DNA from: a virus
Taxonomy: Duplodnaviria > Heunggongvirae > Uroviricota > Caudoviricetes
Reading direction: 5' to 3' (one strand)
Length of the DNA: 64,000 nucleotides
IMG/VR virus record: IMGVR_UViG_3300036985_002287
Coordinates: 30,613 to 94,612 of that record
The translations under genes and the position numbers were made by a program. This document shows positions 6,016 to 47,143 of this stretch, in pieces (within the stretch, counting starts at the first letter, position 1; each line of letters begins with the position of its first letter). The notes beneath the pieces are model-generated. The model did not search any database. It saw only the letters and a list, made by a program, of their open reading frames with translations, and was not told where the DNA came from.

Positions 6016-6218
6016 TTTACTTTCCTCGGTTTCGGGAAATATCCTTCGGCAAGGTCGTCAGTGATAGAATTCATAAAGCGTGTCATACTTTCGACATCGC
6101 CGTGTGCCTGGAAAAATTTCTTCTTGGCACCGTCGGCAAACCGTGTAACAGTGATATGAAGATACTTATCGATGTCTTCAGTAACTTCAAAATCAAACAG
6201 TGTCATTAATTTCTGCAT
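6012..6218 (-). CDS. hypothetical protein
   Basis: 68 aa ORF. Confidence 0.5.
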   Translation of the reverse strand: MQKLMTLFDFEVTEDIDKYLHITVTRFADGAKKKFFQAHGDVESMTRFMNSITDDLAEGYFPKPRKVK

Positions 6219-6651
6219 CTTCGGCCTTTAGTTTTCTAAGTCTCAGAACTTCTTTTGTTTCGCCCTTGCTCTTCTTACCATTGCAGGGAGAGCACATAAT
6301 TTGCGTATTGGTAAGATCGTCTGCACCACCCAATGCCCTTGCTTTGATATGATCATGAGTGAATAGAATCTCCTCACCATCACGTACACCATATAGGTTG
6401 AGGTGCCAGGAATCTTGTCCAGGAGATTGCTCCACAGCGAAGAATGTAGCTTCCAAATCGCAGCATACGCACTTCATACCTTTAGCACTCAATCCAGCAC
6501 GAGCAAATGTTCTCATACGGCGAGAGGATACACCTACCCAAATGCCGGATGATCGTTGGATACGGACTCGCTTTTCTTTCCAATGTGTTTTCACATAAGG
6601 AATAATTTCAGAAATGGGTATTACTTCGGATCGAAGGTATCTTTGTGTCAT
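6193..6651 (-). CDS. HNH endonuclease
   Basis: FTHDHIKARALGGADDLTNTQIMCSPCNGKKS = HNH motif; Cys pairs upstream. Confidence 0.8.
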   Translation of the reverse strand: MTQRYLRSEVIPISEIIPYVKTHWKEKRVRIQRSSGIWVGVSSRRMRTFARAGLSAKGMKCVCCDLEATFFAVEQSPGQDSWHLNLYGVRDGEEILFTHDHIKARALGGADDLTNTQIMCSPCNGKKSKGETKEVLRLRKLKAEDAEINDTV

Positions 6652-6657
6652 GCTACT

Positions 6658-6685
6658 ATTATAACATAAGATATAGAAAAGACAA
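6658..6685 (-). promoter_or_regulatory. promoter TTGTCT-N16-TATAAT, 6 nt from ATG
   Basis: attata 6658-6663; weaker -35; ATG at 6651. Confidence 0.5.
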
Positions 6686-6692
6686 ATAGGTA

Positions 6693-6730
6693 GCAGTCGC
6701 GAATGAAAAATTGTTAATCATTCCACTGCC
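6693..6730. repeat. GGCAGTGG...TTCGCGACTGC hairpin element, copy 1
   Basis: gcagtcgcgaa...ccactgcc; related copies at 12314-12362 and 12156-12177. Confidence 0.45.
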
Positions 6731-6809
6731 TGTGCTTTGGTTCTTATGGGTTTAGGATGCTATTTTATAGCAGACGCCCGTAATCCTTTCGGATACCTGC
6801 CCTCACACC

Positions 6810-7697
6810 TTAAATTATATTCTTTGCAACAGAGTCCACGATTACTTTCATATGCTTCGGACCTATATCTACACTCTCCGAAAAATCAATTACGAAGTCT
6901 TTTCTTGTTAGTGGATCTTCGAGATATTCTTTAACTAATTTGTTCCAAAATACTAAATTTTCTTGTCGAGCATCTTTAGGAAGCACAATACAATACCCAT
7001 CTGCATCTTGCCATAGTGGATAAACTTTATTTAGAATAGGAACGAATTCCGAATCGTGTAAAGGTTTTCTATTGCTCAAAGCAAGTAATCGTAACTTTCC
7101 TGCATCTATCATCGGCTTTGCAAGTATCAACGGAAGTATAGCAACGTCGACATGACCACCCATTACATCTGTCATTAACGGTGCACCACCTTTATATGCG
7201 ACCAATGTGGGTGGCCGCCTTCCATTTTTAAGATCTGTAAACTTGAATAGTTCTTCCATTAGAATCTTTTGTGCTGGTGCTCCATAGCCAAATGATTTTT
7301 TGGTGTCTACTTTGCTCAACTCGTTTTGAACTTCTGACAACGATTGTAGGCTATTAGCAGACCCAGTTACAAGTGCAAAGATCGACGTTCTTATCATAGA
7401 TACATATTCAAATTGATAATTAGGGTTCTTATTTTGATAGACTGCTACAGTAGCCACAGTACCAAAACCGATTGTGCTGTCGTCGGCAGAAGCAACTTCT
7501 CCCATCCCTATTAAGCCGTCTGCACCACTTTTATAATTTGCAATAATATTGATTCCTCGTGAATCGGCATATTTTTGAAAATGTCGAAAGGCAATATCGG
7601 CGCCGCCGCCTGGCGGAAATGGTATAATGGCTTTATATGGGTCGGCGTGAGCAATGGCGCATATTAAAATTAACGCTGCGATTATAATTTTTCTCAT
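6810..7697 (-). CDS. TctC/Bug-family periplasmic solute-binding protein (tripartite tricarboxylate transporter receptor)
   Basis: Signal peptide MRKIIIAALILICAIAHA; PFPPGGGADI..., YKGGAPLMTDVMGGHVDV, AGKLRLLAL family signatures. Confidence 0.8.
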   Translation of the reverse strand: MRKIIIAALILICAIAHADPYKAIIPFPPGGGADIAFRHFQKYADSRGINIIANYKSGADGLIGMGEVASADDSTIGFGTVATVAVYQNKNPNYQFEYVSMIRTSIFALVTGSANSLQSLSEVQNELSKVDTKKSFGYGAPAQKILMEELFKFTDLKNGRRPPTLVAYKGGAPLMTDVMGGHVDVAILPLILAKPMIDAGKLRLLALSNRKPLHDSEFVPILNKVYPLWQDADGYCIVLPKDARQENLVFWNKLVKEYLEDPLTRKDFVIDFSESVDIGPKHMKVIVDSVAKNII

Positions 7698-8866
7698 GGT
7701 GTCTTATCGAACTGTCCTATGTTATAAAATCGAGAAAATATCGATTTTGTTGCAATTTTGTTACCTAGCGGATCTAAATCACAATACATGGCATCAATAT
7801 CATCCATCTCGGATGAATAATTATGGCGCCACGCTGCGATCGAATCTTTCAATTCTGGATGAGAATATAACCAGTAGTCCTTATCTTCTCTAAATACACT
7901 CTTAGGCTTCTCAGCCTGAAAGCGACTAAAATCCCAATCTTTATATATTATAGTACGAATAGCATGTTGCGCCAATTCTGCGGCAGCATGGGCTTGATCT
8001 TTTGTTTCTGTATCCCATTTTCTTTGAATGAGAGGTCTCATAGCAGGATTATTATTAAAATATTGGAATACTTGATAGGCCTGCTCGTACACTAATTCGG
8101 GCATATTGGGTGCCCAATAAAATAATTCTAATCCCTCTGTATTCTCGTGATAAGGTGTACTGACTGCAATTATACCATCATTAAATACCATACCAACATC
8201 ACCTTCGTCGTCGGCTACTACAATCGGTTTATCGACCCCCCATATCTCTGCAACCCGCTTACCTGCAGATAACCACTTTTTCTCGTTTTCGGAGAATGTC
8301 TGCATACGCATAAGATTTGCTGCCGAGTGCAGATGCTGTTGTGTTTCAAATAGTGAATCCTTAAAGTATTCAGGACTACATTTATCGACCCATTCGGCAA
8401 CTTCGATTTTTATTTCTGGATGATTTTGTGCAAGCCATTCCAGATCTTTTTTAATCACAAGATCCCATTCACTCATGAAATTGTAGGCGCTCTTGTCATC
8501 TGATCTGACCCGGTGTAGTGGTTGCGCCTTCATGGGCCAGCGAACAAATATACAATCCAGTTTTATATTATTTTTTAAGAAAGTATTCAGAACAGTCCAG
8601 CTATCGCTACCTCCACTGTAATATAACACGAGGTAATCATATGAATCCCTTATCTGTTGAGCTCTTTCTTTATATAATGTTTCTAACGGAGTTTTTCCTA
8701 ATATAGATTTATCGAAATTTAACCATGTATTAAAGAAATAGGAATAGTGTACCCGAGTTTTACTTTTCGATGCCTGCACTAATGCTTCGATCTTATTATA
8801 GTATTTTACATACTTCCCGGCATCATTCTGTGCCCACCATTCTCCATTCTTGTATAAATGTTTCAT
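7694..8866 (-). CDS. PP-loop (SGGxDS) ATP pyrophosphatase-family protein
   Basis: LVLYYSGGSDSWTVL PP-loop motif about 85 aa from N-terminus; 390 aa; ATGA overlap with downstream TctC gene. Confidence 0.55.
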   Translation of the reverse strand: MKHLYKNGEWWAQNDAGKYVKYYNKIEALVQASKSKTRVHYSYFFNTWLNFDKSILGKTPLETLYKERAQQIRDSYDYLVLYYSGGSDSWTVLNTFLKNNIKLDCIFVRWPMKAQPLHRVRSDDKSAYNFMSEWDLVIKKDLEWLAQNHPEIKIEVAEWVDKCSPEYFKDSLFETQQHLHSAANLMRMQTFSENEKKWLSAGKRVAEIWGVDKPIVVADDEGDVGMVFNDGIIAVSTPYHENTEGLELFYWAPNMPELVYEQAYQVFQYFNNNPAMRPLIQRKWDTETKDQAHAAAELAQHAIRTIIYKDWDFSRFQAEKPKSVFREDKDYWLYSHPELKDSIAAWRHNYSSEMDDIDAMYCDLDPLGNKIATKSIFSRFYNIGQFDKTP

Positions 8867-10050
8867 TACGGTATAATCTCCACAAAATCGTATATTGATG
8901 CAGTAGTTACTAATTGTTTATCTTCTACCGATAATTTACTGAACCATTTTACTGGATCACCTTCTGCCATCCGTCTGCCTAAATATTTAACTAATTCGCA
9001 AACGGGCTCGACTACTTCTGTACGATAGCTATCATTCTTAAGGACATAAGCTATATGCAAATTCTTCATGCAGTTACCACGACACCATTCCACGGCTTCA
9101 CATCTATGGCATGGCATATCTGGATGCATCTGCAAAGGGCTATGTGTTAAAGTATTATCGGTAATGGAACCATGCTGCATATCGGGCACCCATGTCATAT
9201 CTGTACACGCAAATATTTTTCCATCAGGGCTTATATTAACTGCATTAGTTGAAGACCGACACTGTGCTTTACCCGAACATTGTGCAGCAGCCGCACCAGG
9301 CACCGCCATGTTACGCGCAATGCCCATTAATGGTACAATAGGGTAGACACCGTCATAGGAATAGAATCTATCTACCAATTGGTCGATCACTCGTTTTTTT
9401 GCTTCCATATGTTCGGGGTAATATACACCTTTTTGTTGAGCAAATTGAAAATGCACCCAATCAAATGTTTCTAATAATTTATCGAAAGCTTCAGAAGGTA
9501 AGTCTGGATCACACCAAGTAACTCTTGCAGTCAGTGTACCTGTTACCCTGGACTGTATTGCTCCTACATTTTTCATAATGTTAGCAAATACATTCTTACC
9601 ACGATACTTATTCGTTATTTGTTCGGTACCATCTATCGATATAAGGAAATTTGTAAAGCGTGATAGCACATCGTCATCTATTTTATTCAATAGTGTGCCA
9701 TTTGTTATAATTTGATATTCCGCAAAAGGAAACCGATCCATAACTTCTGTTATGAACGGCCTGTTCATTAACGGCTCGCCGCCAAAGAATGTGAAATAGA
9801 TATCCTTATCAGACAAGTGAGTATCAACAAATGTCTCTAATTCGTCTAAAGAATATGTAGGTTTTCCTTGAGATGAGAGAATATCTCCTTCGCCTAACAC
9901 ACAGTAAGAACAACTAAGATTGCACTTCAGTGTAGTAGATATCTGGATTTCAACTCTGTTACCACTAATTGCTGGCAGAATTACTGTATCCATGCTCTTT
10001 CTATTATCGATCAACTTCTGTTTTAATAAAATTTGCAAGTTTTGCAGCAT
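8866..10050 (-). CDS. radical SAM enzyme with C-terminal SPASM-like Cys cluster
   Basis: CNLSCSYC (CxxxCxxC), FGGEPLMN, ITNGTLL, C-terminal CxxC...C...C (CHRCEAVEWCRGNC); start may be ATG 9993 (MDTVIL). Confidence 0.8.
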   Translation of the reverse strand: MLQNLQILLKQKLIDNRKSMDTVILPAISGNRVEIQISTTLKCNLSCSYCVLGEGDILSSQGKPTYSLDELETFVDTHLSDKDIYFTFFGGEPLMNRPFITEVMDRFPFAEYQIITNGTLLNKIDDDVLSRFTNFLISIDGTEQITNKYRGKNVFANIMKNVGAIQSRVTGTLTARVTWCDPDLPSEAFDKLLETFDWVHFQFAQQKGVYYPEHMEAKKRVIDQLVDRFYSYDGVYPIVPLMGIARNMAVPGAAAAQCSGKAQCRSSTNAVNISPDGKIFACTDMTWVPDMQHGSITDNTLTHSPLQMHPDMPCHRCEAVEWCRGNCMKNLHIAYVLKNDSYRTEVVEPVCELVKYLGRRMAEGDPVKWFSKLSVEDKQLVTTASIYDFVEIIP

Positions 10051-10216
10051 CCTCGGGAGATAGAATAAGTTCGGTCATCACCCGTTCATTAGTTGGATCT
10101 AATGCTGTATCGAATGTAGATAGGAATCGTAGTTGATATTCATTTGATCGAGGATTAGCATCACGCATCTCTACATAGACTGAATACGATCCGTTTGTAC
10201 TAAGAAGTTGTTTCAT
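10004..10216 (-). CDS. hypothetical protein
   Basis: 70 aa ORF immediately upstream of radical SAM gene. Confidence 0.45.
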   Translation of the reverse strand: MKQLLSTNGSYSVYVEMRDANPRSNEYQLRFLSTFDTALDPTNERVMTELILSPEDAAKLANFIKTEVDR

Positions 10217-10413
10217 CGATCGCCTTCGAATGCGGCCTCCGCCGCCATTACTAAATTGTCATAACCGATGTCATACAATTCGGCAGGATCTAATTCATTC
10301 AGCTCTTCTTCTGTCATATCAAGTCCGTCGTCCCAGCAACCTTCTGTAGCATAGAAGCCATCATCCATGTCGCCTTCGACTACAACGCTATTCCAATCAA
10401 CTTCTTTACTCAT
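10213..10413 (-). CDS. small highly acidic protein
   Basis: 66 aa, D/E-rich (EGDMDDGFYATEGCWDDGLDMTEEELNELD); AGGAG SD. Confidence 0.5.
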   Translation of the reverse strand: MSKEVDWNSVVVEGDMDDGFYATEGCWDDGLDMTEEELNELDPAELYDIGYDNLVMAAEAAFEGDR

Positions 10414-10757: not shown

Positions 10758-10961
10758 CTATTTTGAAGAACTTGTATCTTGTTCTAATAATCGTTCTTCA
10801 TATTCTTCTTCGGTCAACGAGTGACTACCATTACAATAACCTGTGGTACTACGACCACATCCGCATGGTTGTTTGTGGTCTGTGCCAAAAATCATATCCC
10901 ATCTCTGCGAGTATTCCTCGTTAGAAACACTCCGGGGTCTTTGCTTACTTCCCTTACTCAT
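10758..10961 (-). CDS. hypothetical protein
   Basis: 67 aa; CGCG...GYCNGSH Cys/His cluster. Confidence 0.5.
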   Translation of the reverse strand: MSKGSKQRPRSVSNEEYSQRWDMIFGTDHKQPCGCGRSTTGYCNGSHSLTEEEYEERLLEQDTSSSK

Positions 10962-11053: not shown

Positions 11054-11138
11054 TGGTGCGGCTGGCCGGACTCGAACCGGCACACCTTTCGGCGAGAGAT
11101 TTTAAGTCTCTTGTGTCTACCAATTTCACCACAGCCGC
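11054..11138 (-). tRNA. tRNA-Leu (anticodon TAA), CCA encoded
   Basis: GCGGCTGTGGTGAAATTGGTAGACACAAGAGACTTAAAATCTCT-long variable arm-GCCGGTTCGAGTCCGGCCAGCCGCACCA; class II cloverleaf. Confidence 0.9.
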
Positions 11139-11168
11139 AGTATTCACTAATAAGTATTTATTATATAC

Positions 11169-11501
11169 TTATTCATAGTATATGTCAATATAGGCCAAGG
11201 CATCCATTTCTTCTTGCAGTGCAGTGGCAACGGATTCCTTCACACGCAGCGGATCATTAATCACAACTTCGCGAACCTTATTTGCGATCGAGTCGCGACC
11301 ATTTAGGTACGCAATTAGTCGACCGGATGCAATCGCTCGGCCAACCTTCTTATTGAATACATCAGTTGTATTACACCGAGCAATGGAAACAAGAACCTTA
11401 TTGTTATCGGCTGGCAGAATTGCAATTGTGGCGCCACCACGCGAACTCATTTCCATGTCCATGTTGAAGTACCGATAATGCATAAATTCTAGCTTATTCA
11501 T
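11169..11501 (-). CDS. hypothetical protein
   Basis: 110 aa ORF; AAGGAA SD. Confidence 0.55.
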   Translation of the reverse strand: MNKLEFMHYRYFNMDMEMSSRGGATIAILPADNNKVLVSIARCNTTDVFNKKVGRAIASGRLIAYLNGRDSIANKVREVVINDPLRVKESVATALQEEMDALAYIDIYYE

Positions 11502-11538
11502 TGTGTTCCTTTGTGTGTTAAAGCGTTTATAAGTTTAT

Positions 11539-11567
11539 ATTTTACAGTAAGGCAAGCTGCCTGTCAA
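11539..11567 (-). promoter_or_regulatory. promoter TTGACA-N17-TAAAAT
   Basis: tgtcaa 11562-11567; atttta 11539-11544. Confidence 0.55.
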
Positions 11568-11574
11568 CTATCTT

Positions 11575-12102
11575 TTACTTTGGCCTGTAAAATTTGTGAT
11601 TGTCGATTATTGCCATCACCTCAAATTGTTTTGACCAGATAGGATATTTGTAACCTTTAGCTTTCATCACTTTGTCAGCAAGGTAAAATGTTGCGCCACC
11701 GGTCGGATCGGGTACTGTTCGGTGTGCCACTTTATGTGCTACCTGCATGGCCATTTGCCAACTTTGCTTGTCGATTTCGTTCTTTTGATTCGGTATTTTG
11801 TTTGGGCTAACTGCTATATTTCTAAGTGTAGCGTTATTATTAAATACGCTATACTGCTTAGGCTGTAATACGACCTGGCATAACGTCTTTTTAACCGCCC
11901 TATTTAATGCTGTGTATGCCACAGCTACCTGACCACGCTCCGGCTCGCTACGAGCTTCGCCGTATATAGCAGTAGCCAAACACTTGATCTGCTTCATATC
12001 AACCTTAACTACTTTCGGAGTATGATGCGGTTTAAAACACATTGTCGGCTGACCCAGACCTAATGTGGTAGGCACTAATGCTAGTAAGAGTAATTGCTTC
12101 AT
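11575..12102 (-). CDS. SleB-like cell-wall hydrolase, secreted
   Basis: Signal peptide; AIYGEARSEP...VAYTALNR...PKQYSVFN signature of SleB/Hydrolase_2 family. Confidence 0.7.
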   Translation of the reverse strand: MKQLLLLALVPTTLGLGQPTMCFKPHHTPKVVKVDMKQIKCLATAIYGEARSEPERGQVAVAYTALNRAVKKTLCQVVLQPKQYSVFNNNATLRNIAVSPNKIPNQKNEIDKQSWQMAMQVAHKVAHRTVPDPTGGATFYLADKVMKAKGYKYPIWSKQFEVMAIIDNHKFYRPK

Positions 12103-12109
12103 ACTTCCT

Positions 12110-12138
12110 ATTATATCTTAAATAGGAGTATGAGTCAA
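12110..12138 (-). promoter_or_regulatory. promoter TTGACT-N17-TATAAT, 7 nt from ATG
   Basis: agtcaa 12133-12138; attata 12110-12115; ATG 12102. Confidence 0.65.
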
Positions 12139-12155
12139 TAGGAATTAGAATAAGC

Positions 12156-12177
12156 GGCAGTCACGAAAAGTAGTGCC
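12156..12177. repeat. GGCAGT...hairpin element, short copy
   Basis: ggcagtcacgaaaagtagtgcc; shares TTCGYGACTGCC half with the other copies. Confidence 0.3.
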
Positions 12178-12313
12178 GAACCAGAACCCAATCCGGTCGA
12201 GATGCTTTTCTACTGTCTGTTCCGACATGTATTAGGAACCTTTATAAGAAGTTTACAGCCCTTTCGGGATTGGCTCCACTTATGCCGTGGTGAGCATTCT
12301 TATATTAAAAATT

Positions 12314-12362
12314 GGCAGTCGCGAAAGTAACGATCTTTAACTATCTTGATACTACCACTGCC
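12314..12362. repeat. GGCAGTGG...TTCGCGACTGCC hairpin element, copy 2
   Basis: ggcagtcgcgaaag...ccactgcc, immediately downstream (minus sense) of tRNA 12401-12477. Confidence 0.45.
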
Positions 12363-12400
12363 GGTAATGTTTCTTGACTATCCACATCACCTTTTAAAAA

Positions 12401-12477
12401 TGGTAGGCCGGGTGGGAGTCTAACCCACGATCAACGGTTTATGAGACCGCTGCTTTAGGACACTAAGCTACCAGCCT
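12401..12477 (-). tRNA. tRNA with CAT anticodon (Met or lysidine-dependent Ile2), CCA encoded
   Basis: AGGCTGGTAGCTTAGT...GCGGTCTCATAAACCGT...GTGGGTTAGACTCCCACCCGGCCTACCA; A1-U72 and acceptor resemble E. coli ileX as I recall it. Confidence 0.85.
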
Positions 12478-12482
12478 AAATT

Positions 12483-12674
12483 TTATTTCTTGGTTTTTCT
12501 TGGGTCATCATCCATTAACCCTTGCGCCAATAAGGCATCGCATACACCATTCATGATGATCCACAATTTCCAGTCGGTAGCGCCGCCTTGCTTAACCATT
12601 TCTCTCAATTGTGTATTTGTTTCCTGCAATTCTTGCAGAATTGCATCTAATACTTCTTCTTTACTCTTAGCCAT
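12483..12674 (-). CDS. hypothetical protein
   Basis: 63 aa ORF. Confidence 0.5.
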   Translation of the reverse strand: MAKSKEEVLDAILQELQETNTQLREMVKQGGATDWKLWIIMNGVCDALLAQGLMDDDPRKTKK

Positions 12675-12698
12675 TATATCGCCTTTGTTTGTTATTTA

Positions 12699-12971
12699 CT
12701 ATTTCTTAAACCAAATCTTTGCAATCGCGGTAGCAACTATTAGTGATAAATGGTTGCTACAGAGAACATTTTCGCGTCGTGCAATCTTCGAAACTTCGTG
12801 GCTAAGATAATACCTAACCCAGCTCAACAGACCTTTCGCCTTAGCAAAACTGTCGTGTACATCTTTTCTGCTGTTAAATTCCGCATCACATATTTCGAAT
12901 AATGTATCAACTGCCCCTATCTCAGAGTTCATACAATGATACAATTCGATATGATTTCTTGGAGACAGCAT
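12699..12971 (-). CDS. hypothetical protein
   Basis: 90 aa ORF; 1-nt overlap upstream. Confidence 0.5.
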   Translation of the reverse strand: MLSPRNHIELYHCMNSEIGAVDTLFEICDAEFNSRKDVHDSFAKAKGLLSWVRYYLSHEVSKIARRENVLCSNHLSLIVATAIAKIWFKK

Positions 12972-13273
12972 TATTTGGCCAAACTAATGAAATGTCGTGG
13001 TGTTTTGAACTCTGCATCACCTTTTGCTCGCCATTGCGCCGGTGTCTGAGCTACCTTGGCAATCTTTGCGGCTGGCTTAACCATTTCGCGATTGATATAC
13101 CATGTAAGCATTTTGGCCTTAACTTGGTCTGCTACACTGCCATATTCGGGATCGTGGCTAAATCTAATCGGCGAATCCGCCCATGCATTGCGCGTCATGA
13201 AGGATGCCACTGCCTTCCTGTGCAATTTATTATTCGCATCAAATGCAACTGTGTTCATTTTATGAAGAATCAT
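12971..13273 (-). CDS. hypothetical protein
   Basis: 100 aa ORF; AAGGAAAC SD. Confidence 0.55.
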   Translation of the reverse strand: MILHKMNTVAFDANNKLHRKAVASFMTRNAWADSPIRFSHDPEYGSVADQVKAKMLTWYINREMVKPAAKIAKVAQTPAQWRAKGDAEFKTPRHFISLAK

Positions 13274-13291
13274 TTTGTTTCCTTAGTGTGT

Positions 13292-13366
13292 TGGTCCGGC
13301 GTACAGGAATCGAACCTGTATTAATAGCTTAGAAGGCTACTGTTCTTTCCATTGAACTAACGCCAG
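13292..13366 (-). tRNA. tRNA-Arg (anticodon TCT), CCA encoded
   Basis: CTGGCGTTAGTTCAATGGAAAGAACAGTAGCCTTCTAAGCTATTAATACAGGTTCGATTCCTGTACGCCGGACCA folds as cloverleaf. Confidence 0.9.
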
Positions 13367-15098: not shown

Positions 15099-15304
15099 TG
15101 TCTGAATTGAGGTTTATCGAATTTAGCTAAACTTGCCGCCACAATATCTTTTGCATCACTCTCTGACAAACTGTTTGTTTCTTCCCATTGTTCATTATCT
15201 TCGTTCCAAATAAGAATGCCACCTAGGTTATTGATTTTGTAGAAACCCGAAATAGTATGAACCAATACATATTGAAGAATGATTGCTTTGTGTGCTTGCA
15301 TCAT
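15095..15304 (-). CDS. hypothetical protein
   Basis: 69 aa ORF; ATGA overlap with GGDEF gene. Confidence 0.5.
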   Translation of the reverse strand: MMQAHKAIILQYVLVHTISGFYKINNLGGILIWNEDNEQWEETNSLSESDAKDIVAASLAKFDKPQFRH

Positions 15305-15978
15305 CTATTTATTACTTCTGGAGGTATTCCATGATATAGGTCGATACCGGACTTCTTAGCATAATACATGGCGCAATCAGCGTGATACATCAATGAAGTA
15401 TAATCTTCACCGTGAATTGGGTAAGTAGTCACTCCTACACTGAGACCAACACTAAGATTAGTTCCAGAAATCTCCATTGGCAATTCGACACTCTTTATTA
15501 GATTAATATATTCCACATCAGATAATTCGCCCTTGACTAATATAACAAATTCGTCGCCGCCCAGCCTAGCTGAAATATCACCTTTTCTTAAAGAATCCTG
15601 CATTCTTTCAGCTATGATCTTTAATACGTCGTCGCCCACACGATGCCCGTAGGTATCGTTTATGTATTTGAATTTACATAAATCTATCAATACTAGTTGA
15701 AATTTATCTCCTCGCTTAATAAATTTCTTAAATTCCTTATTAAAGGAACTTCGATTGAATAACCCTGTGAGTGCATCATATTTTGCAAGAGTGACCATTT
15801 CGGACCAGGAAGAATATTGTATAACCATAGGGATAAGTAATAAACATGATACCACAGCATCTACTAAATAATGTAGAACATGTGGCAACACGATTAGTTC
15901 ATGCATAAGATGGATGATAGATATACACCCGGAGAATGCTAGGCATAATACCGTAGCATGAATGATATTTGCTTTCAT
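15301..15978 (-). CDS. membrane-anchored GGDEF-domain diguanylate cyclase
   Basis: Two N-terminal hydrophobic helices; YDALTGLFNR, HRVGDDVL, RLGGDEFVIL (GGDEF) motifs. Confidence 0.8.
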   Translation of the reverse strand: MKANIIHATVLCLAFSGCISIIHLMHELIVLPHVLHYLVDAVVSCLLLIPMVIQYSSWSEMVTLAKYDALTGLFNRSSFNKEFKKFIKRGDKFQLVLIDLCKFKYINDTYGHRVGDDVLKIIAERMQDSLRKGDISARLGGDEFVILVKGELSDVEYINLIKSVELPMEISGTNLSVGLSVGVTTYPIHGEDYTSLMYHADCAMYYAKKSGIDLYHGIPPEVINR

Positions 15979-17869: not shown

Positions 17870-18084
17870 ACCATGTGATCCCTGAAGGTTCCTGCGGGGT
17901 ATTTTAATTTAAGAACTATTTCTAATTCCTCATCGTCAACACAGAATACAAATTGTGTAAGCGGTCCTACTCCTCTAGGATCTATCTCTATTTTTCTAAA
18001 TATAGGCACTCCTACCTCTTCTTTTAACCATTTTTCCTTCATCTGCGCTATTGACGAGATGCATGTATAAGACATAATTCGCAT
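17866..18084 (-). CDS. hypothetical protein
   Basis: 72 aa ORF. Confidence 0.5.
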   Translation of the reverse strand: MRIMSYTCISSIAQMKEKWLKEEVGVPIFRKIEIDPRGVGPLTQFVFCVDDEELEIVLKLKYPAGTFRDHMV

Positions 18085-18845
18085 TATACGCCCTTTATTA
18101 GTTGTAGCATATCGGGAATTCTAGTATGTGAATTCTTACTCCCTAACAATATATACATTCGTTTCCCTACATCAGAATTTAATATCATTACAAGACACCC
18201 TCCTGCTGGATTAGTAAATCCAGTTTTAGATAATTGTATATCAAACTGCGATGTTAGTGGATTCGTATTATGTAATTTAATCAATCTCTTATTTGTCCGT
18301 ATTTCGGCATTAGGCTGACCCGATATTTCACTAATTGTATTATTTAATGTAGCCACCATTAACAATTTCAATAAATCATGTGCTGTGCTAACATTGCCTT
18401 TATCTAATCCGGTGGGTTCTTGATATCGGGTGCTTGTCATTCCTAACTCTGCTGCCTTATCATTCATTTTCTCTACACAAGATGGCAAGTTGATACATAA
18501 TATTTGTGCTGCGAAATTATCCGATCTAACAAGTGCTAGTGTCAATAATTCACGTCTAGATAGATTATGTGTTGTCCTCGGTATGCTACTTTGTACTTGA
18601 CGCTTATTGGGTATAGATAAAGCTTCGGTCAAGTCTTGTTCGGACGAAAGAAGCGCAACCATTAATTTACTGATACTTGCTATAGGGCGTATTGTATCGC
18701 CGTCTTGTTCTTTCAGTATTGTGCCATCCTCTGTAGCCACAATATAACTTTTCGAACTAAAGGGTATTACTCGATGATTGCCTTTGGCCGCAGCATTACT
18801 TATGAGAAGAGCAGATGCACATATAGCTAGAATAAGAGTCTTCAT
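18084..18845 (-). CDS. secreted D-alanyl-D-alanine carboxy/endopeptidase (S11, PBP5/7-like)
   Basis: Signal peptide; SISK (SxxK), SDN, KTG active-site triad motifs in correct order. Confidence 0.75.
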   Translation of the reverse strand: MKTLILAICASALLISNAAAKGNHRVIPFSSKSYIVATEDGTILKEQDGDTIRPIASISKLMVALLSSEQDLTEALSIPNKRQVQSSIPRTTHNLSRRELLTLALVRSDNFAAQILCINLPSCVEKMNDKAAELGMTSTRYQEPTGLDKGNVSTAHDLLKLLMVATLNNTISEISGQPNAEIRTNKRLIKLHNTNPLTSQFDIQLSKTGFTNPAGGCLVMILNSDVGKRMYILLGSKNSHTRIPDMLQLIKGV

Positions 18846-23794: not shown

Positions 23795-24997
23795 TCATTT
23801 TTTCCTGTTTTGCGGTGAATGGCTATCTGCCTCATACCAAGCTGTCATACCGAACGGCGCAACCAATTTGCGACCGGGGTCTCCGTGAATAAGAAAGAGT
23901 GTATCACAGTAATCCGGGTCTCCCCAGGATCCGCATGGATATCCATCGGTCATCATAATGAATCTTTCAGGACAAATACCTTTCTCCTTCATGAATTTCC
24001 AATTACACATGAAGTCAGTCCCGCCTCCGCCCTTTATATCATACTGGTCGATATCGTCGAGCGTATCTGGCGTAAACTTTTGATAGTTATAAACCTTTGT
24101 ATCAAAAGTCCAAACTTCTAACTCAAAGTCCATGAACTGTTGCATAATACCTTTTGTTTCGGTTAGTAAATCACGCAGCATATCGTCACTCATAGAGCCG
24201 GAAGCGTCTACGCCTACAGCCGCTTTAACTTTGAAATCGTTCTTTGTAGCAGGCAGATATATGCCGCTTGCTTGCATCTTACGCGAGCAACGATCCCAGG
24301 TAAAATCTGCCTTTACCATAGACTGCAATTTCATATTAAGCACCTCTCTCCAATCCATCTGTGGCTCAACAAGATCCTTCAACAGGCGCCGAACACCTGC
24401 CGGTGTATGTCCGGCGCCTGCAGCCTTAGCCGCTTGCATAACAGCATTGCGAATTTCATCTGACAGAACACGTTGTTCTTCTTCTGTCATCGGCTCACCT
24501 TTGCCATCACCTGGTTCCAAGTGAATATCGAACTCGGGCCAATTGGAGTTAGGATCCTTAAGAAGCAGTTCATACACTTCTTCTGTACACATTCCTTTGT
24601 ACTTTTTATCGAAACATGCAGTTACCCCGGATGTTTTTGGATTAGGTAAAACACCGATGTGATGTTCGTCCAACTCGCAATTAATGACATAGTCAGCAGC
24701 AGCATTCCACATCTTTGGTTTGCGGCTACCTCGTCTGTCCATGTGGTCATATACGCAGTGTTCTACTTCGTGTCCTACCAGGAAGATGCACTCGGGTCGA
24801 TCGAGCTTGCTAATGAAGTCTCTGTTGTAATAGAAGTATCTACCGTCCGTCGCCGCGGTTTTACACCAAGGATCGTCTGTAGCATCCCTCAGAATCAGTC
24901 GTGTTGCAAGTGTTCCCCAAAATGGTTGTTGGAGAAGTAATGAGATTCGAGCCCTTGTCAATTGCTCCAATACTGCTTCGGCACTATTGTTAATCAT
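23795..24997 (-). CDS. VWA-domain protein with N-terminal HExxH metallopeptidase-like domain
   Basis: GHEVEHC (HExxH); MIDAS-like DASGSMSD; standard partner of MoxR ATPases. Confidence 0.7.
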   Translation of the reverse strand: MINNSAEAVLEQLTRARISLLLQQPFWGTLATRLILRDATDDPWCKTAATDGRYFYYNRDFISKLDRPECIFLVGHEVEHCVYDHMDRRGSRKPKMWNAAADYVINCELDEHHIGVLPNPKTSGVTACFDKKYKGMCTEEVYELLLKDPNSNWPEFDIHLEPGDGKGEPMTEEEQRVLSDEIRNAVMQAAKAAGAGHTPAGVRRLLKDLVEPQMDWREVLNMKLQSMVKADFTWDRCSRKMQASGIYLPATKNDFKVKAAVGVDASGSMSDDMLRDLLTETKGIMQQFMDFELEVWTFDTKVYNYQKFTPDTLDDIDQYDIKGGGGTDFMCNWKFMKEKGICPERFIMMTDGYPCGSWGDPDYCDTLFLIHGDPGRKLVAPFGMTAWYEADSHSPQNRKK

Positions 24998-25017
24998 TTA
25001 ATTCCTTTGTTGTATGT

Positions 25018-25046
25018 ATTATACATTTATACAGTTAAACAGTCAA
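25018..25046 (-). promoter_or_regulatory. promoter TTGACT-N17-TATAAT
   Basis: agtcaa 25041-25046; attata 25018-25023. Confidence 0.65.
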
Positions 25047-25050
25047 GTGG

Positions 25051-25072
25051 AAAAGGCCCTTGCGGGCCTTTT
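25051..25072 (-). terminator. intrinsic terminator (weak T tract)
   Basis: AAAAGGCCC-GCAA-GGGCCTTTT hairpin abutting MoxR stop. Confidence 0.5.
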
Positions 25073-26167
25073 TTAATCTTCCAGGATGTATTTACCGTAT
25101 TTTTCTTGGAATGTCTTGAACGTCTTCAGTTGCCGGTGACGAATAGGCAGGTTGTAATCACGTAGTGCAGTCTTAGCACCGAGCACAATCATTTCTGTCT
25201 GGAAATTGCTCATCATGTATGCAAAGAAGTGATCGATGCACTCATGCCATGTGTCCATATTGAACCCGTCTTCTTTTGCATTAGCCTTCGCAACCCATTC
25301 GTTCAGTGTGTAACACATAGAAATAGTCAGCGAATACATTGCGCTCAAGTCCTTAACATTAAGGGACTTTTCCTTACCCATCAGCACATCTTCCGACTTA
25401 GGCATGCGAGCCGAAATCTTTCTATGAGCACTAAACTCTGTTGCCAAGCCATCACCGACAGTGCCAGCAACCAGCGCCGTATTCATCGACTCAGGAATAT
25501 CATCGCTAATCAGTTGCGAAACGAATACCCAAGTACGCGGGGTAGCGAATGCCTTGTCCGGGCTCTTGCTGTCGAAGTTAAACAATTTTTGTTTGTGATG
25601 CGACAAGAAACCTACCACGTCTGGATGGATGCGGTTAGCGATTGCCCATTTTTGCCAATCTTCAAAGTTGGCCGCCATTTCCATGTGAACCAAACGATTA
25701 GCCAACGGACTTGGCATACGATATGTCACACCCTTGTCGCTATCCCTATTCCCTGCACAGACGATAGATACACCTTTTGGCAAGTGATATTCGCCGACGC
25801 GCCGATTAAGAATAAGCTGATATGCAGCAGCTTGAACGCTGGGCGGTGCAGCATTGATTTCGTCCAAGAAGAGAATGGCATTTGCCATATATGTGTCGGT
25901 AGGCAAGTCAGCAGGCTGTGCCCACTTCATTGTCTTTGACTCGGGATCGAAGTACGGAATACCTTTAATATCGGTAGGTTCCAATAACAGCAGACGCATA
26001 TCAATCACAGGGCGACCAGTTTCTTCACCGATCTCTGCAATCAATTCAGATTTACCAATACCAGGCGGTCCCCAAATCATTGCAGGACGACCTACCTTCA
26101 TACAACGAGTAAGAAGGGTGCGTACATCACGTGGACGTTCGACGCGGGAGGTATCAAGTGTAGCCAT
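25073..26167 (-). CDS. MoxR/AAA_5-family AAA+ ATPase
   Basis: Walker A GPPGIGKS, Walker B LFLDEINAA; 364 aa. Confidence 0.8.
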   Translation of the reverse strand: MATLDTSRVERPRDVRTLLTRCMKVGRPAMIWGPPGIGKSELIAEIGEETGRPVIDMRLLLLEPTDIKGIPYFDPESKTMKWAQPADLPTDTYMANAILFLDEINAAPPSVQAAAYQLILNRRVGEYHLPKGVSIVCAGNRDSDKGVTYRMPSPLANRLVHMEMAANFEDWQKWAIANRIHPDVVGFLSHHKQKLFNFDSKSPDKAFATPRTWVFVSQLISDDIPESMNTALVAGTVGDGLATEFSAHRKISARMPKSEDVLMGKEKSLNVKDLSAMYSLTISMCYTLNEWVAKANAKEDGFNMDTWHECIDHFFAYMMSNFQTEMIVLGAKTALRDYNLPIRHRQLKTFKTFQEKYGKYILED

Positions 26168-27658: not shown

Positions 27659-27848
27659 CTTCTTGTATACTTTTCAGTATGCTAATTAGTTGTGGGATTG
27701 CTTTGCGGTCCATGTGAAACACACTATTAAATGGCATTCCTTTAACCTGCATCTTCAACACAGTATCGGACGCCCACACATCAGCATACCAAGACGGTTC
27801 AAACTTTCCCTGATGTGTAGTGTCATACTGAGTGATTGTGTGTTTCAT
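27651..27848 (-). CDS. hypothetical protein
   Basis: 65 aa ORF. Confidence 0.5.
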   Translation of the reverse strand: MKHTITQYDTTHQGKFEPSWYADVWASDTVLKMQVKGMPFNSVFHMDRKAIPQLISILKSIQEDE

Positions 27849-28627
27849 TTTATATTACAAGTATTGTTTAAATTTTGCATATCGGCGCATGTATATGCTT
27901 GATAAGAATCTTTTAAAATATCCGGCATATCGATGTACTCGACTCTTGCATTATACTCCTTTGCAATTGTACGAGCAACCAACTCAAAAGATGATGCCTG
28001 CCCTGTTCCCAGATTCCATAATCCACTTTTATTAATATTCAAAAAATCCAGATGAGTTTTTATTACTTTCTGGACTTGAATAAAATCTCTCATAAAATTT
28101 TCACTATTTTTAAATAACTTAATTACACCAGTTTCCTTAGCCTGCTTTGTAAATTTAAAATGTGGGCTTGCTTGATCGCCTTTATGTTCTTCACCTTCGG
28201 GCCCATAGACATTAAAATATCTAAATCCTTGAATAATATTGCCACCGGGATGATCACGCACATATCGTTCAAATAAGTATTTACTCCATGCATACGGAGT
28301 GCGAGGATCCAATCGGGCATCTTCCTTGAATGTGCTGTTTAGTCCGTAAACGCTTGCACTACTCGAATATTGAAAATTAACTCCGTATGTTTTACAAGCA
28401 TTATACAATTGACGACTAAAATCAAAATTTTGTCTCATTACCTTTTCTATATCTCTATCAGTTGTGCTACTGATTGCACCAATATGTATAACCCAATCTT
28501 GTTCCATAACACTAGGGAGATTACTCTCGCCCCATTCATAAGTTGACACAGAATGTCCTGCAGATTCTAGTGCGGTCAACATATGACCGCCTATAAATCC
28601 TTTATAACCAGTTAATATAATATTCAC
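27845..28627 (-). CDS. NAD-dependent sugar epimerase, HldD (ADP-glyceromanno-heptose 6-epimerase)-like, short form
   Basis: ILTGYKGFIGGH Rossmann; GAISSTT...FQYSSSASVYG resembles the HldD pattern GACSSTTE...YASSAATYG. Confidence 0.6.
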   Translation of the reverse strand: MNIILTGYKGFIGGHMLTALESAGHSVSTYEWGESNLPSVMEQDWVIHIGAISSTTDRDIEKVMRQNFDFSRQLYNACKTYGVNFQYSSSASVYGLNSTFKEDARLDPRTPYAWSKYLFERYVRDHPGGNIIQGFRYFNVYGPEGEEHKGDQASPHFKFTKQAKETGVIKLFKNSENFMRDFIQVQKVIKTHLDFLNINKSGLWNLGTGQASSFELVARTIAKEYNARVEYIDMPDILKDSYQAYTCADMQNLNNTCNIK

Positions 28628-43437: not shown

Positions 43438-44340
43438 TTATGCCATGCTTACATATAAATGCTGTTGTAGGTTCAGCTTGAATCCATGATCAAGACAGTA
43501 TTTACCTGTGTATTCGTGATTACGTTGATTTTCTACTAAGTTTAATAATCCAGGTTCCCAGAAAGAAATTACCTCATCTACTGTAGATCGTTCTGCCATT
43601 GTGATCTCACCTTTCTCTGCTCGAAGTAATTTAATCTTCTGCGGAAAGTCATTATATACATTCATAGGGGAACAATAGATTTCTTTCTCCGGATTAAGTC
43701 TTTTCCATTCGTGTGCCCATTCCGGGACTGTGCTATATGGACTTACCGGGTCCGCACTCATTACAAACTTAAGGCAGTCGGCCCGCTTAAGAATCATATC
43801 AGTCGGTGCTAAATACTTTGTTGCTACACCGTTCTTTTCCGAACACTTGGGAGAACATACAACAGTGACGTGACTGGCTATATATGGATTGCTTATTGTG
43901 CCATTAGTTTCGATTTGAATTGCCTTAAATACCGGTTCAACACTATCCATAAAACCTAATAAATTAGATTGCAACATCGGCTCGCCACCCGTGATAACTA
44001 AGACAATGTTCGGCCAATGGAAGCTTGGCTGTGGCCGAGGGAAACGAGTCATTGCCCACTCCGGCGGCACTTCTGGCGGTGTCCGTGTAGCCCAATAATT
44101 ACGAATAGTATCAAATGCCTTATGCTGAATTTCATCATATGTCATCCATGTACCGTCATCAAAGAAAGTATCGCAGAAAGAACATGCTAGGTTACACTTT
44201 GCTAATCTGATGAATAGTGCAGGTAGACCAGCATAGGGTCCTTCTCCTTGCAACGTAAAGAACATACTTGTAACATACAAGCTGCCTTTAGGTGCTTTAT
44301 CAAAAAATTTCTTGCCAATTATTGTATTAGTTCCGAACAT
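43438..44340 (-). CDS. queE: 7-carboxy-7-deazaguanine synthase (QueE-like radical SAM)
   Basis: LQGEGPYAGLPALFIRLAKCNLACSFCDT is the QueE N-terminal signature. Confidence 0.7.
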   Translation of the reverse strand: MFGTNTIIGKKFFDKAPKGSLYVTSMFFTLQGEGPYAGLPALFIRLAKCNLACSFCDTFFDDGTWMTYDEIQHKAFDTIRNYWATRTPPEVPPEWAMTRFPRPQPSFHWPNIVLVITGGEPMLQSNLLGFMDSVEPVFKAIQIETNGTISNPYIASHVTVVCSPKCSEKNGVATKYLAPTDMILKRADCLKFVMSADPVSPYSTVPEWAHEWKRLNPEKEIYCSPMNVYNDFPQKIKLLRAEKGEITMAERSTVDEVISFWEPGLLNLVENQRNHEYTGKYCLDHGFKLNLQQHLYVSMA

Positions 44341-44516
44341 TATTCTTTATCCTCGAATTTAACAAGTTTAACTCTGACGCCTTCAAATTCATTATCGAAC
44401 GCAACAGTGACAACTTCCAAAACTTCTTCACAGCCTGTTACGCCACGATCATTTATGTCATTCCAGAACTCATCATCGCCTTCTTCTATAACAAATTCGA
44501 ATATGTATCTTTTCAT
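44340..44516 (-). CDS. 58-aa acidic protein
   Basis: MKRYIFEFVIEEGDDEFWNDINDRG...; AAGGA SD, own promoter, TAATG junction with queE; below track cutoff. Confidence 0.5.
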   Translation of the reverse strand: MKRYIFEFVIEEGDDEFWNDINDRGVTGCEEVLEVVTVAFDNEFEGVRVKLVKFEDKE

Positions 44517-44534
44517 ATATAGTCCTTATCTGTT

Positions 44535-44563
44535 ATTATAGCGATTTTCGATATGTAAGTCAA
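44535..44563 (-). promoter_or_regulatory. promoter TTGACT-N17-TATAAT
   Basis: agtcaa 44558-44563; attata 44535-44540. Confidence 0.65.
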
Positions 44564-44576
44564 GTCACCTATCGAA

Positions 44577-44900
44577 TTATACACCAGATGAGTCGCCCCA
44601 TGTATGCATATATTTAGATAGTCTTATCATCTTATTAACACGGGCTTTTTCTATACCAGAAGCGGTAACACCGAGATTCGCGTTAGTAACCATATCTACC
44701 AACGCCAATACATCTCCTAATTCCATTTCTAAATTTTCAAGATTAGTTGTTGTAGAAGCAGGGTTCTTACCCACTACACCAAATCGTTTAATTTTAGATG
44801 CTGCCTGAATTACTTCGGCACATTCTTCCTGAAGAATATTAAGACATTCTTCCTGATGATCATTTACTTGTTTCAAATTTTTTCTCCCAATTCCATGCAT
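44577..44900 (-). CDS. MazG-like nucleotide pyrophosphohydrolase
   Basis: CLNILQEECAEVIQAASKIKRFG...ELGDVLALV: EExxE/D helices of the small all-alpha MazG family. Confidence 0.6.
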   Translation of the reverse strand: MHGIGRKNLKQVNDHQEECLNILQEECAEVIQAASKIKRFGVVGKNPASTTTNLENLEMELGDVLALVDMVTNANLGVTASGIEKARVNKMIRLSKYMHTWGDSSGV

Positions 44901-45828
44901 GTGATATAATATCTTTTATATTATATTGAGGTTCCCAATGTAATATATTCTTAGCCTTATCTATACATGCCGTCAATATTGCAGGATCTCCTTTGCGAGG
45001 TGCAACATATTCATATATAGGCTCTTTACCAACTACTTCACCTGCATATTTAACTAGCTCTGTTAAACTTATGCCACCGGTACCACCACCTAAGTTAAAT
45101 ATTTCATTACTGAAACCGGCATTAAGGAATTCTATCGCCTGTACGTGACCTTCTGCTAAGTCAGACACATGAATATAGTCCCTAACACAAGTTCCGTCTT
45201 TTGTAGCATAGTTGTTACCGAATATTTGAAATACTTCATTATTCATTATTTTATTACATATAATAGGAATAACATGAGTAGCAGGGCGCTGTGTATATCC
45301 GAATCGACATTCTGGATCAGCACCTGCGGCATTAAAATATCTAAATGTGATATACTTGATACCATATGCTCTTGCATAATCCCTGATCATTAATTCTCCT
45401 GCTGTCTTTGACGATGCATAGGAATTTTCTGGATCATAATACATATCTTCTTTTAGATATAGAGCTCTGCCTTGCCTACCATATAAATTTCCGGTAGAAC
45501 TAAAGACGATATTTTTTATGCCTATAGCGACCATATGATCGAGCATAACCTGCATTTTTACCACATTATTCGTGTAATATTTAGCCGGCTCTGACAGGCT
45601 TTGCGGCACAATATGCTCCGCTGCCAGATGCACTATTGTATCAAATTTAGTTGTATTTGTTTTAATGAAGTCACAATAATCTGATTCAATAACTTCGCCT
45701 GGACCATTCCAGTTCTGTGTATTCTTATCCACAATAGTAATTTTGTGACCTTCTTCGTGTAATTTATATACTACTTGCGTACCTATAAATCCACAGCCTC
45801 CGGTAACTAGAATATTATGTCTTCTCAT
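44860..45828 (-). CDS. NAD-dependent sugar-nucleotide epimerase/dehydratase (GalE-like SDR)
   Basis: VTGGCGFIGTQV Rossmann, YASSKTAGE (YxxxK). Confidence 0.8.
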   Translation of the reverse strand: MRRHNILVTGGCGFIGTQVVYKLHEEGHKITIVDKNTQNWNGPGEVIESDYCDFIKTNTTKFDTIVHLAAEHIVPQSLSEPAKYYTNNVVKMQVMLDHMVAIGIKNIVFSSTGNLYGRQGRALYLKEDMYYDPENSYASSKTAGELMIRDYARAYGIKYITFRYFNAAGADPECRFGYTQRPATHVIPIICNKIMNNEVFQIFGNNYATKDGTCVRDYIHVSDLAEGHVQAIEFLNAGFSNEIFNLGGGTGGISLTELVKYAGEVVGKEPIYEYVAPRKGDPAILTACIDKAKNILHWEPQYNIKDIISHAWNWEKKFETSK

Positions 45829-46202
45829 TAGTTGGGAAAATATTCTAATATTCCACCATTAATATTATCTTCGTAAATCTCTACCTTAATGTATCTACCT
45901 TCATACCTGTATCGAATTTTATCGATAAGCTGTTCTGCTAACATCTCACAGCTCATATAGTCCATTTTTAGTTCTTCCACATATAAGGATTCCAGCCATC
46001 GTCTAAACTGAATGAATTCTATATCACGATTGTTCTGGAATACTTCCACAGTTACAACAAAGTAAAAATAGTGGAAGTGTTCGTGTCCTAAGAAAGATAC
46101 ATCATCCCACTTACCCGTCTTTAAGGTAGGATCTGTTAATGCTTCCGGATACCTATGTGTACCTTCTTTAGTAAATTTTACGTTTATATATCGCTTAATC
46201 AT
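45828..46202 (-). CDS. queD: 6-carboxytetrahydropterin synthase (QueD / PTPS-like)
   Basis: FTKEGTHRYP...LGHEHFHYFYFVVTVE...SCEMLAEQL aligns by eye with E. coli QueD FEAAHRLP...LHGHSFMVRLEI...TSEVLAKW. Confidence 0.65.
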   Translation of the reverse strand: MIKRYINVKFTKEGTHRYPEALTDPTLKTGKWDDVSFLGHEHFHYFYFVVTVEVFQNNRDIEFIQFRRWLESLYVEELKMDYMSCEMLAEQLIDKIRYRYEGRYIKVEIYEDNINGGILEYFPN

Positions 46203-46357
46203 ACAATCTCTTCGATAATACCTAATATCTCTGCAACTACAATCATTGTACCTGCAAAAAACAGATTTCCTGCAGCAAGACTACATCCTGCCACAATGCG
46301 TAATGCGCTCTTAACGAAACTAATTCGTTGATGTAATTTAGGATCTGGCTGTCTCAT
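46199..46357 (-). CDS. 52-aa hydrophobic peptide
   Basis: MRQPDPKLHQRISFVKSALRIVAGCSLAAGNLFFAGTMIVVAEILGIIEEIV; ATGA overlaps on both sides; below track cutoff. Confidence 0.45.
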   Translation of the reverse strand: MRQPDPKLHQRISFVKSALRIVAGCSLAAGNLFFAGTMIVVAEILGIIEEIV

Positions 46358-47142: not shown

Positions 47143-47143
47143 A

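Follow-up and report, generated by a model that had tools for sequence, protein, structure and literature searches.

In Betaproteobacteria, orphan TctC solute-binding proteins of tripartite tricarboxylate transporters (TTT) are the rule, with many such proteins served by few TctAB membrane components, and an orphan TctC adjoining an enzyme has been used to infer a common carboxylated substrate (PMC5812351). A phage binding protein that plugs into a host transporter also has a precedent in cyanophage PstS, in which the phage supplies only the high-affinity binding protein and uses the membrane parts of its host (10.1101/2021.07.20.453049). Here we describe a locus in a 64,000-nucleotide stretch of a Caudoviricetes virus (IMG/VR record IMGVR_UViG_3300036985_002287, positions 30,613 to 94,612; hereafter the window) that encodes a TctC protein of this kind. 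Five genes on the minus strand make up the locus: two small open reading frames (ORFs), orf66 and orf70, a radical S-adenosylmethionine (rSAM) enzyme with a SPASM domain, a PP-loop ATP pyrophosphatase and the TctC protein (Table 1). The initial annotation of this DNA listed these genes and their coordinates, all of which we find as described, and proposed that they could work together in one pathway. Our best reading is instead that two unrelated elements meet here, a mobile two-gene module and a stand-alone rSAM enzyme. The PP-loop and TctC genes very probably form a conserved unit, and the rSAM enzyme is very probably independent of it.

The pairing of the PP-loop and TctC genes is systematic in viruses. 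Homologues of the PP-loop protein number 239 in a protein collection, none of them named, and 548 relatives are present in IMG/VR; a profile search of 1.84 billion representatives returned 1698 clusters (50% identity), all of 370-430 aa. Across 78 loci fetched for a survey of the pair, TctC-like ORFs repeatedly lay directly beside PP-loop ORFs. When gene order was shuffled 2000 times within 71 non-redundant loci, TctC became the immediate neighbour of 9.9±2.8 PP-loop genes (maximum 21), against 41 observed. The PP-loop gene comes first in 31 of the 42 unique adjacent pairs and TctC in the other 11, with gaps mostly of -4 to +26 nt and start and stop codons that usually overlap. In the window, the PP-loop/TctC junction reads CCATGAGA, with the ATGA at 7694-7697. 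Similarity matrices of the two proteins are correlated (r=0.76, Mantel p=0.001), and pairs are kept down to 26-29% identity (loci L009 and L002). When the search was reversed and seeded on a TctC motif, 24 of the 38 viral loci had a PP-loop gene next to TctC, and another five were truncated. Some phages carry two to three paralogous pairs (L038, L050, L029), arranged in L038 as PP-TctC-NMO-TctC-PP-PP-TctC.

DNA alignments delimit this pair at the locus itself. By blastn, the window is collinear with two loci that carry related rSAM genes, L006 and L169; homology ends at 8866/8864, which is the rSAM stop codon, and resumes at 6665/6666, at the promoter of a downstream HNH gene. Because homology stops and resumes at these two points, positions 6667-8865 are a discrete two-gene insertion or replacement in a variable slot. 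The junction between the rSAM and PP-loop genes reads CCG TAA TGA AAC, that is TA[A]TG with base 8866 common to both genes, and this one-base overlap is an insertion junction. Both end-to-end overlaps pointed out in the initial annotation can be read directly from the sequence, and the case carries a caution for annotation: start/stop overlaps in phage genomes can stem from cassette insertion and are no proof of a common pathway. What fills the slot differs between loci: the PP-loop/TctC pair in the window, a gene of 180 aa in L006 and, in L169, a gene on the opposite strand. An HNH endonuclease gene (6193-6651) with its own promoter-like site stands exactly at the right-hand edge of the slot, which may be a homing or recombination hotspot.

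The nearest phage relatives of the rSAM enzyme lack the pair. In the closest of them, P0121 (92% identical), the order is Hydrolase_2...66-aa ORF-rSAM-HNH, with HNH directly after rSAM. In L169/170 (82%), a tRNA-like stretch, the rSAM gene and an opposite-strand gene come before HNH, and in L006-8 (75%) the order is orf66-rSAM-180-aa gene-HNH-...-ligase. None of these has a PP-loop or TctC gene, and dozens of pairs occur without this rSAM. The neighbourhood comparison proposed for the rSAM and PP-loop genes points the same way: six PP-loop genes have an rSAM neighbour of any family, against 6.1±2.2 expected (p=0.59).

Outside phages, the rSAM enzyme has orthologues of about 50% identity in Betaproteobacteria. 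A scan of one genome per species gave more than 550 relatives, the best 80 of which are all from Betaproteobacteria (46-51% identity) and include the genera Gallionella, Aromatoleum, Noviherbaspirillum, Rubrivivax and Sulfuritalea. The bacterial genes stand alone. In 80 betaproteobacterial loci, no neighbour proved to be conserved, the commonest real cluster being present in 11 of them, and a survey of 74-76 flanks revealed no conserved small ORF; in Azoarcus KH32C, the gene lies by itself between ftsEX and a PAS kinase. GenBank phages contain only remote rSAM enzymes, of 22-25% identity. From these comparisons, the rSAM enzyme appears to be a stand-alone enzyme acquired from Betaproteobacteria and acting independently of the cassette. 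Its DNA (8866-9982, aligned to L006 10045-11161) is 72.5% identical to the L006 copy. Since the flanks are much closer to L006 (orf66 region 92%, ligase region 87%), this suggests an allele exchange at rSAM itself.

To place the rSAM enzyme, we compared it with known families. It had been described as a 394-aa radical SAM protein with a CNLSCSYC motif and a C-terminal SPASM cysteine cluster, and this description stands. The protein scores above cut-off for PF04055 (41.5 bits, cut-off 29.5) and TIGR04085 (36.4 bits, cut-off 27), and just 18.3 bits against the Pfam SPASM model, below the cut-off of 21.5. When 23 homologues from phages and bacteria are aligned (mean column identity 67%), the cysteines of both clusters never vary. 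Those of the SPASM region follow C264-x12-G277-x4-C282, C314-x2-C317-x5-C323-x3-C327, C351, which fits the pattern Cx9-15Gx4C...Cx2Cx5Cx3C...C. The more specific models all score below their cut-offs. The top NCBIfam match, TIGR04084 (AF0577-type rSAM/SPASM), reaches 138.2 bits with a cut-off of 225; the PapB family scores 85 against 340; and the anaerobic sulfatase maturase model TIGR03942 scores 68.1 bits against 349, with no sulfatase among the window ORFs scanned. A viperin-like rSAM was considered and rejected: the PADLOC pVip match (45 bits) reflects the generic rSAM core only, and the protein reaches 38 with the NCBIfam viperin model, whose cut-off is 180.

Among proteins of solved structure, its nearest relatives are CteB (E 5e-25) and anSME (E 4.5e-12). 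Since the alignment to CteB begins only at CteB residue 101, past its leader-binding RRE domain, the window enzyme lacks such a domain. With neither an RRE nor a conserved adjacent precursor peptide, it falls outside the rSAM/SPASM enzymes that mature ribosomally synthesized and post-translationally modified peptides. It shares with the anSME/CteB-type maturases the radical-SAM core, the seven-cysteine SPASM region and a compact anSME-like architecture of about 370 aa, but it lies far under the cut-offs of their families and has no RRE, sulfatase or nearby precursor peptide. It is a compact, RRE-less, anSME-like SPASM enzyme. Because homologues are 371-391 aa long and the N-terminus is unconserved before residue ~25, translation may really begin at M20 (ATG at 9993); orf70 and rSAM would then be separated by a 10-nt gap instead of overlapping.

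The two small ORFs upstream do not travel with the rSAM gene. The product of orf66 is extremely acidic, as first noted, with 21 D+E against 2 K+R and a pI of ~4.05, and the stop codon of orf66 overlaps the orf70 start as ATGA. orf66 is 97% identical in L006-8, and a 66-aa ORF is also present in the P0121 contigs; it is absent from L009, L169, L239 and bacteria. For orf70, tblastn matches were found in the window and L010 only, and DNA alignment shows it to be missing from L006. orf70 thus seems unique to this phage, and orf66 seems restricted to the closest syntenic clade. Both were considered as precursor peptides and rejected, as neither is conserved with rSAM.

We next turn to the two partners of the conserved pair. 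The TctC protein had been called a signal-peptide-bearing Bug/TctC binding protein, and this assignment is correct. It matches PF03401 (E 1.4e-14; 54.7 bits, cut-off 27), and its N-terminus, MRKIIIAALILICAIAHA followed by DPYK, is a Sec-type signal with equivalents in all ~60 phage TctC homologues, in which A18 is nearly invariant. The signature loop of TTT binding proteins, P-F-x-A-G-G-x-x-D, contacts the proximal carboxylate of the ligand through two bridging waters (PMC5812351). The window protein has this loop, which is conserved across the clade and degenerate in some phage subtypes (L009, L077, L087). HMM and structure comparisons were run for both partners. An AlphaFold2 (AF2) model of TctC, with a predicted local distance difference test score (pLDDT) of 92.9, shows a closed-form Bug fold, and its top 17 Foldseek matches in the PDB are all TTT binding proteins (TM up to 0.81), including TphC, BugE, BugD, Bug27, AdpC, MatC and Polaromonas TctC, with BugE and BugD at TM 0.80-0.81. 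The family profile matches BugE with E 5e-87. Every solved structural neighbour binds a carboxylate, be it aspartate, glutamate, nicotinate, adipate, malate or terephthalate.

Because no TctA or TctB gene was found next to the window TctC gene or among the recurrent neighbours in 83 loci, we consider it an orphan binding protein. In this respect, it resembles the orphan Bug/TctC proteins of Betaproteobacteria (BugD, BugE, Bug27, AdpC, TphC), with which it shares the fold (TM ~0.8), the Pfam family, the P-F-x-x-G-G-x-x-D clamp, the Sec signal and the lack of adjacent tctAB. Unlike them, it is virus-encoded, belongs to its own clade and is systematically paired with a PP-loop enzyme. The phage clade comprises 27 clusters at E <=1e-41; after a gap, cellular TctC proteins, for example from Herminiimonas, follow at ~1e-17. 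No match to TctC or to the PP-loop protein was found in 50,697 GenBank phage genomes. The likeness to cyanophage PstS (10.1101/2021.07.20.453049) is one of strategy: PstS serves an ABC transporter, binds phosphate and comes without a coupled enzyme, whereas the protein described here belongs to a TTT secondary transporter family whose ligands are carboxylates.

The second partner is a 390-aa protein whose proposed PP-loop, SGGSDS, is borne out by invariance in 57 homologues. The motif follows the first beta-strand of a Rossmann-like core, as in PP-loop ATP pyrophosphatases (adenine nucleotide alpha-hydrolases). Its AF2 model (pLDDT 93.9; predicted TM-score 0.92) is closest to the synthetase domain of asparagine synthetase B (AsnB), and its nearest structural relatives all adenylate a carboxylate to form an amide or a lactam. 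At the sequence level, no such relationship is visible. The protein has no match in Pfam, NCBIfam, PHROGs or PADLOC, a profile search gave no PDB sequence match, and none of 57 family members matches any Pfam model at E up to 1. Aligned with Escherichia coli AsnB, it reaches an hhalign probability of 0.3%, which places it outside the Asn_synthase sequence family, and identity to the synthetase domain of AsnB and of related enzymes (beta-lactam synthetase, carbapenam synthetase CarA and TsnB9) is 9%. It lacks the class II (N-terminal nucleophile, Ntn; Cys2) glutaminase domain of AsnB: it starts MKHLYKNGEW, with no Cys2, ~60 residues before the PP-loop helix, and has a beta-hairpin/helix N-domain of about that length in place of the glutaminase. 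No family member has a fused glutaminase. Relatives in BFVD are annotated only as 'uncharacterized protein [uncultured Caudovirales phage]', and the enzyme is phage-restricted so far. It represents a new sequence family, whose likeness to AsnB lies in the predicted fold and presumably in the chemistry.

We propose that these two proteins act on the same compound. The Sec-exported TctC would capture a carboxylate-bearing solute in the host periplasm and hand it to host TctAB, because the phage encodes no TctA or TctB of its own. In the cytoplasm, the translationally coupled PP-loop enzyme would adenylate the carboxylate of the imported solute, and the acyl-AMP would be resolved to an amide by free ammonia or an amine, since the enzyme has no glutaminase. 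In this way, the imported acid would be trapped and converted during infection, while the rSAM enzyme would act on a separate substrate encoded or made elsewhere, with no need of the cassette. The data themselves establish the motifs, the predicted folds, the export signal, the edges of the cassette, a coupling of the pair that is tight, ancient and independent of gene order, and the absence of such a coupling to rSAM. We infer the common substrate, the use of host TctAB, the formation of an amide and the identity of the ligand, and we put the probability that a secreted binding protein feeds a carboxylate to host TctAB for adenylation and amidation by the PP-loop enzyme at roughly 0.4. The idea in the initial annotation of binding or importing a small molecule and transforming it is retained here for the co-conserved pair and is not supported for the trio as a whole.

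Several observations speak against this proposal. Roughly every second PP-loop gene lacks a TctC neighbour, so the enzyme does not strictly need a binding protein, and other partners occur beside it: a 104-aa protein, a GARS_A ATP-grasp protein, a QueC-like PP-loop protein and a 450-aa membrane protein. A binding protein of the DctP family (tripartite ATP-independent periplasmic transporters) is encoded directly after PP-loop genes and before the TctC gene in two loci (L039 2481-3476; L066 23-928). The L039 copy has no signal peptide, unusual for the DctP family, and this neighbour can thus be used only in part as support for import. The overlap of start and stop codons points to synthesis in equal amounts, a feature commoner in complexes than in pairs of a binding protein and an enzyme. 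Finally, the separation of rSAM from the pair has exceptions: in L239-241, the order rSAM (73%)-PP-loop (58%)-TctC (56%) is the same as in the window, and in L026 a different SPASM-type rSAM holds the same position, overlapping the PP-loop/TctC pair by 4 nt.

These last two cases favour the pathway originally envisaged for the five packed genes, in which the SPASM enzyme would modify orf66, orf70 or a small molecule, the PP-loop enzyme would ligate or cyclise the product and TctC would bind or re-import it. The five genes are also co-directional, with overlapping or nearly overlapping junctions and no strong internal promoter or terminator between them, and AsnB-like enzymes act on peptides in lasso-peptide biosynthesis. 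However, co-conservation of the three larger genes in related phages is confined to L239-241. Because these loci repeat the order and each of their three proteins is the closest relative of its window counterpart, the juxtaposition appears to have been inherited or transferred once as a block, and the nearer relatives of rSAM still lack it; a facultative link of rSAM to the pair may exist. The accessory islands that bear the pair are rich in enzymes (B12-rSAM, SPASM-first rSAM, QueC-like PP-loop, fatty-acid desaturase, P450, PhyH, Rieske and NMO proteins), so PP-loop and rSAM genes can be expected to meet occasionally by chance. Set against the pair-free rSAM relatives, the discrete cassette, the chance-level adjacency, the solitary bacterial orthologues, the lack of an RRE and the poor conservation of orf66 and orf70, a single five-gene pathway seems quite improbable to us.

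The PP-loop genes that stand without TctC would also suit an enzyme that amidates an envelope precursor or a macromolecule of the host, in the way that AsnB-type enzymes amidate peptidoglycan meso-diaminopimelate or lipopolysaccharide uronic acids; TctC would then have an unrelated role in nutrient uptake or in the periplasm. The predicted AsnB-type fold is compatible with such a role, as is the wealth of envelope- and lipid-tailoring enzymes in the islands (fatty-acid desaturase, Asp/Arg hydroxylase, PhyH, P450 and epimerases). We nevertheless think it unlikely, because it leaves unexplained the 4-fold enrichment in adjacency, the coupling in both gene orders and the co-divergence of the two proteins, and because no glycosyltransferase or Mur-type partner recurs beside the pair.

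Stoichiometric synthesis and strict cognate co-divergence could instead reflect a direct interaction, with the PP-loop enzyme modifying the TctC precursor before export or the pair serving some purpose other than transport, for example as a periplasmic decoy, as a sensor or in superinfection exclusion at TctAB. The degenerate clamp of the L009, L077 and L087 proteins would fit this. We regard it as very improbable: once exported, TctC no longer shares a compartment with the enzyme, Sec signals occur in all TctC homologues, the window protein retains an intact carboxylate clamp and the closed-form Bug fold, and we know of no precedent for a direct PP-loop/TctC interaction. A narrower version of the capture and amidation that we propose would have nicotinate or quinolinate as the captured pyridine carboxylate and a NadE-like amidation that rebuilds NAD+ during infection. 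This version is the least probable of all, since AsnB-type structures score above NadE for the PP-loop model, the presence of several paralogous pairs in one phage points to more than one substrate, and no NadV, NMNAT or other NAD-salvage gene is present in the window ORFs scanned.

Literature searches turned up nothing relevant on TctC, PP-loop proteins or asparagine synthetase in phages, nor on a PP-loop/TctC pair. The parts come from known superfamilies; what is new is the PP-loop family and the regularity with which viruses combine it with an orphan TTT binding protein. A more general and rather doubtful possibility is that uncultivated, apparently freshwater phages of Betaproteobacteria carry a diversifying family of 'capture-and-amidate' modules, in which TctC hijacks host TctAB for a glutaminase-less synthetase of the AsnB fold and paralogous pairs are specialised for different organic acids, among which could be amino acids or pyridine carboxylates that serve as NAD precursors. 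If this were true, such modules would constitute a new class of phage auxiliary metabolic system. Should the uptake and amidation proposed above hold, the pair would define a large, unannotated enzyme family that has no Pfam, PHROG or NCBIfam model. It would also be the second case, and one with a different mechanism, in which a phage binding protein boosts a host transporter, here a TTT carboxylate system hard-wired to an activating enzyme. Substrate assignment is a long-standing bottleneck for TTT binding proteins, and co-diverging pairs offer a compact route to the ligands of both partners.

Table 1. Features of the locus, in window coordinates.
Feature	Position	Strand	Remarks
orf66, very acidic small protein	10213-10413	minus	66 aa
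orf70, small ORF	10004-10216	minus	70 aa
rSAM/SPASM enzyme	8866-10050	minus	394 aa; PF04055 and TIGR04085 above cut-off
CxxxCxxC radical-SAM cluster motif, C43/C47/C50 (TLKCNLSCSYC)	9901-9924	minus	invariant in 23 homologues
SPASM seven-Cys region, C264 to C351	8998-9261	minus	all seven Cys and G277 invariant (23 homologues)
Two-gene cassette (PP-loop, TctC, 3' spacer)	6667-8865	minus	2.2 kb; edges from blastn
PP-loop ATP pyrophosphatase, predicted AsnB synthetase-domain-like fold, without glutaminase domain	7694-8866	minus	390 aa
PP-loop motif S84-G-G-S-D-S89	8600-8617	minus	S84, G85, G86, D88, S89 invariant in 57 homologues
Secreted orphan TTT solute-binding protein (TctC/Bug)	6810-7697	minus	295 aa
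Sec signal peptide, residues 1-18, cleavage site AHA/D	7644-7697	minus	read from sequence
TTT carboxylate-clamp loop P26-F-P-P-G-G-G-A-D34	7596-7622	minus	F27, G30, D34 invariant; P26, P29, G31 nearly so
Promoter-like site of downstream HNH gene, TTGTCT-16-TATAAT with TG	6658-6685	minus	right edge of cassette

Other gene arrangements recur around PP-loop genes. A GARS_A-type ATP-grasp ligase gene overlaps the start of the PP-loop gene by 4 nt in L017 (4619-7143), and L024 (4604-9529) contains the ATP-grasp/PP-loop arrangement as two convergent copies. A second recurrent pair in the same islands consists of a QueC-like PP-loop gene of ~305 aa followed by a partner of ~190 aa without a family match (L239 5459-6921; also L041, L064, L024 and L029). 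The gene for the 450-aa protein, which is polytopic and has no Pfam match, overlaps the start of the PP-loop gene by 1 nt (L066 3383-5940; L027 11237-12595) and may encode a transporter partner.

The window is part of a large phage with a family B DNA polymerase, a DNA ligase and a 5'-3' exonuclease, and it also encodes a sigma-like factor, a ClpB-like ATPase and three tRNAs. Its DNA has no match among the GenBank phage records searched. The tRNA genes (Leu-TAA, Met-CAT and Arg-TCT) are interspersed with small ORFs at 11054-13366, and a perfect sigma-70 consensus, TTGACA-17-TATAAT, lies directly upstream of tRNA-Leu on the minus strand (11160-11188). A 67-aa ORF at 10758-10961 starts MSKGSKQRP...W..IFG; this N-terminal motif recurs as the N-terminal extension of the L239 rSAM ORF (L239 2105-2200) and may mark a recurrent small phage gene or leader. 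Host-like auxiliary genes occur at 15301-15978, 18084-18845, 27845-28627 and 43438-49125 and encode a GGDEF diguanylate cyclase, an S11 D-Ala-D-Ala carboxypeptidase, two NAD-dependent epimerase/dehydratases and an ADH-like protein. A weak second radical-SAM candidate (43438-44340) sits in a possible sugar-nucleotide cluster, and at 23795-26167 a DUF2201 metallopeptidase/VWA-like protein adjoins a MoxR-like AAA ATPase.

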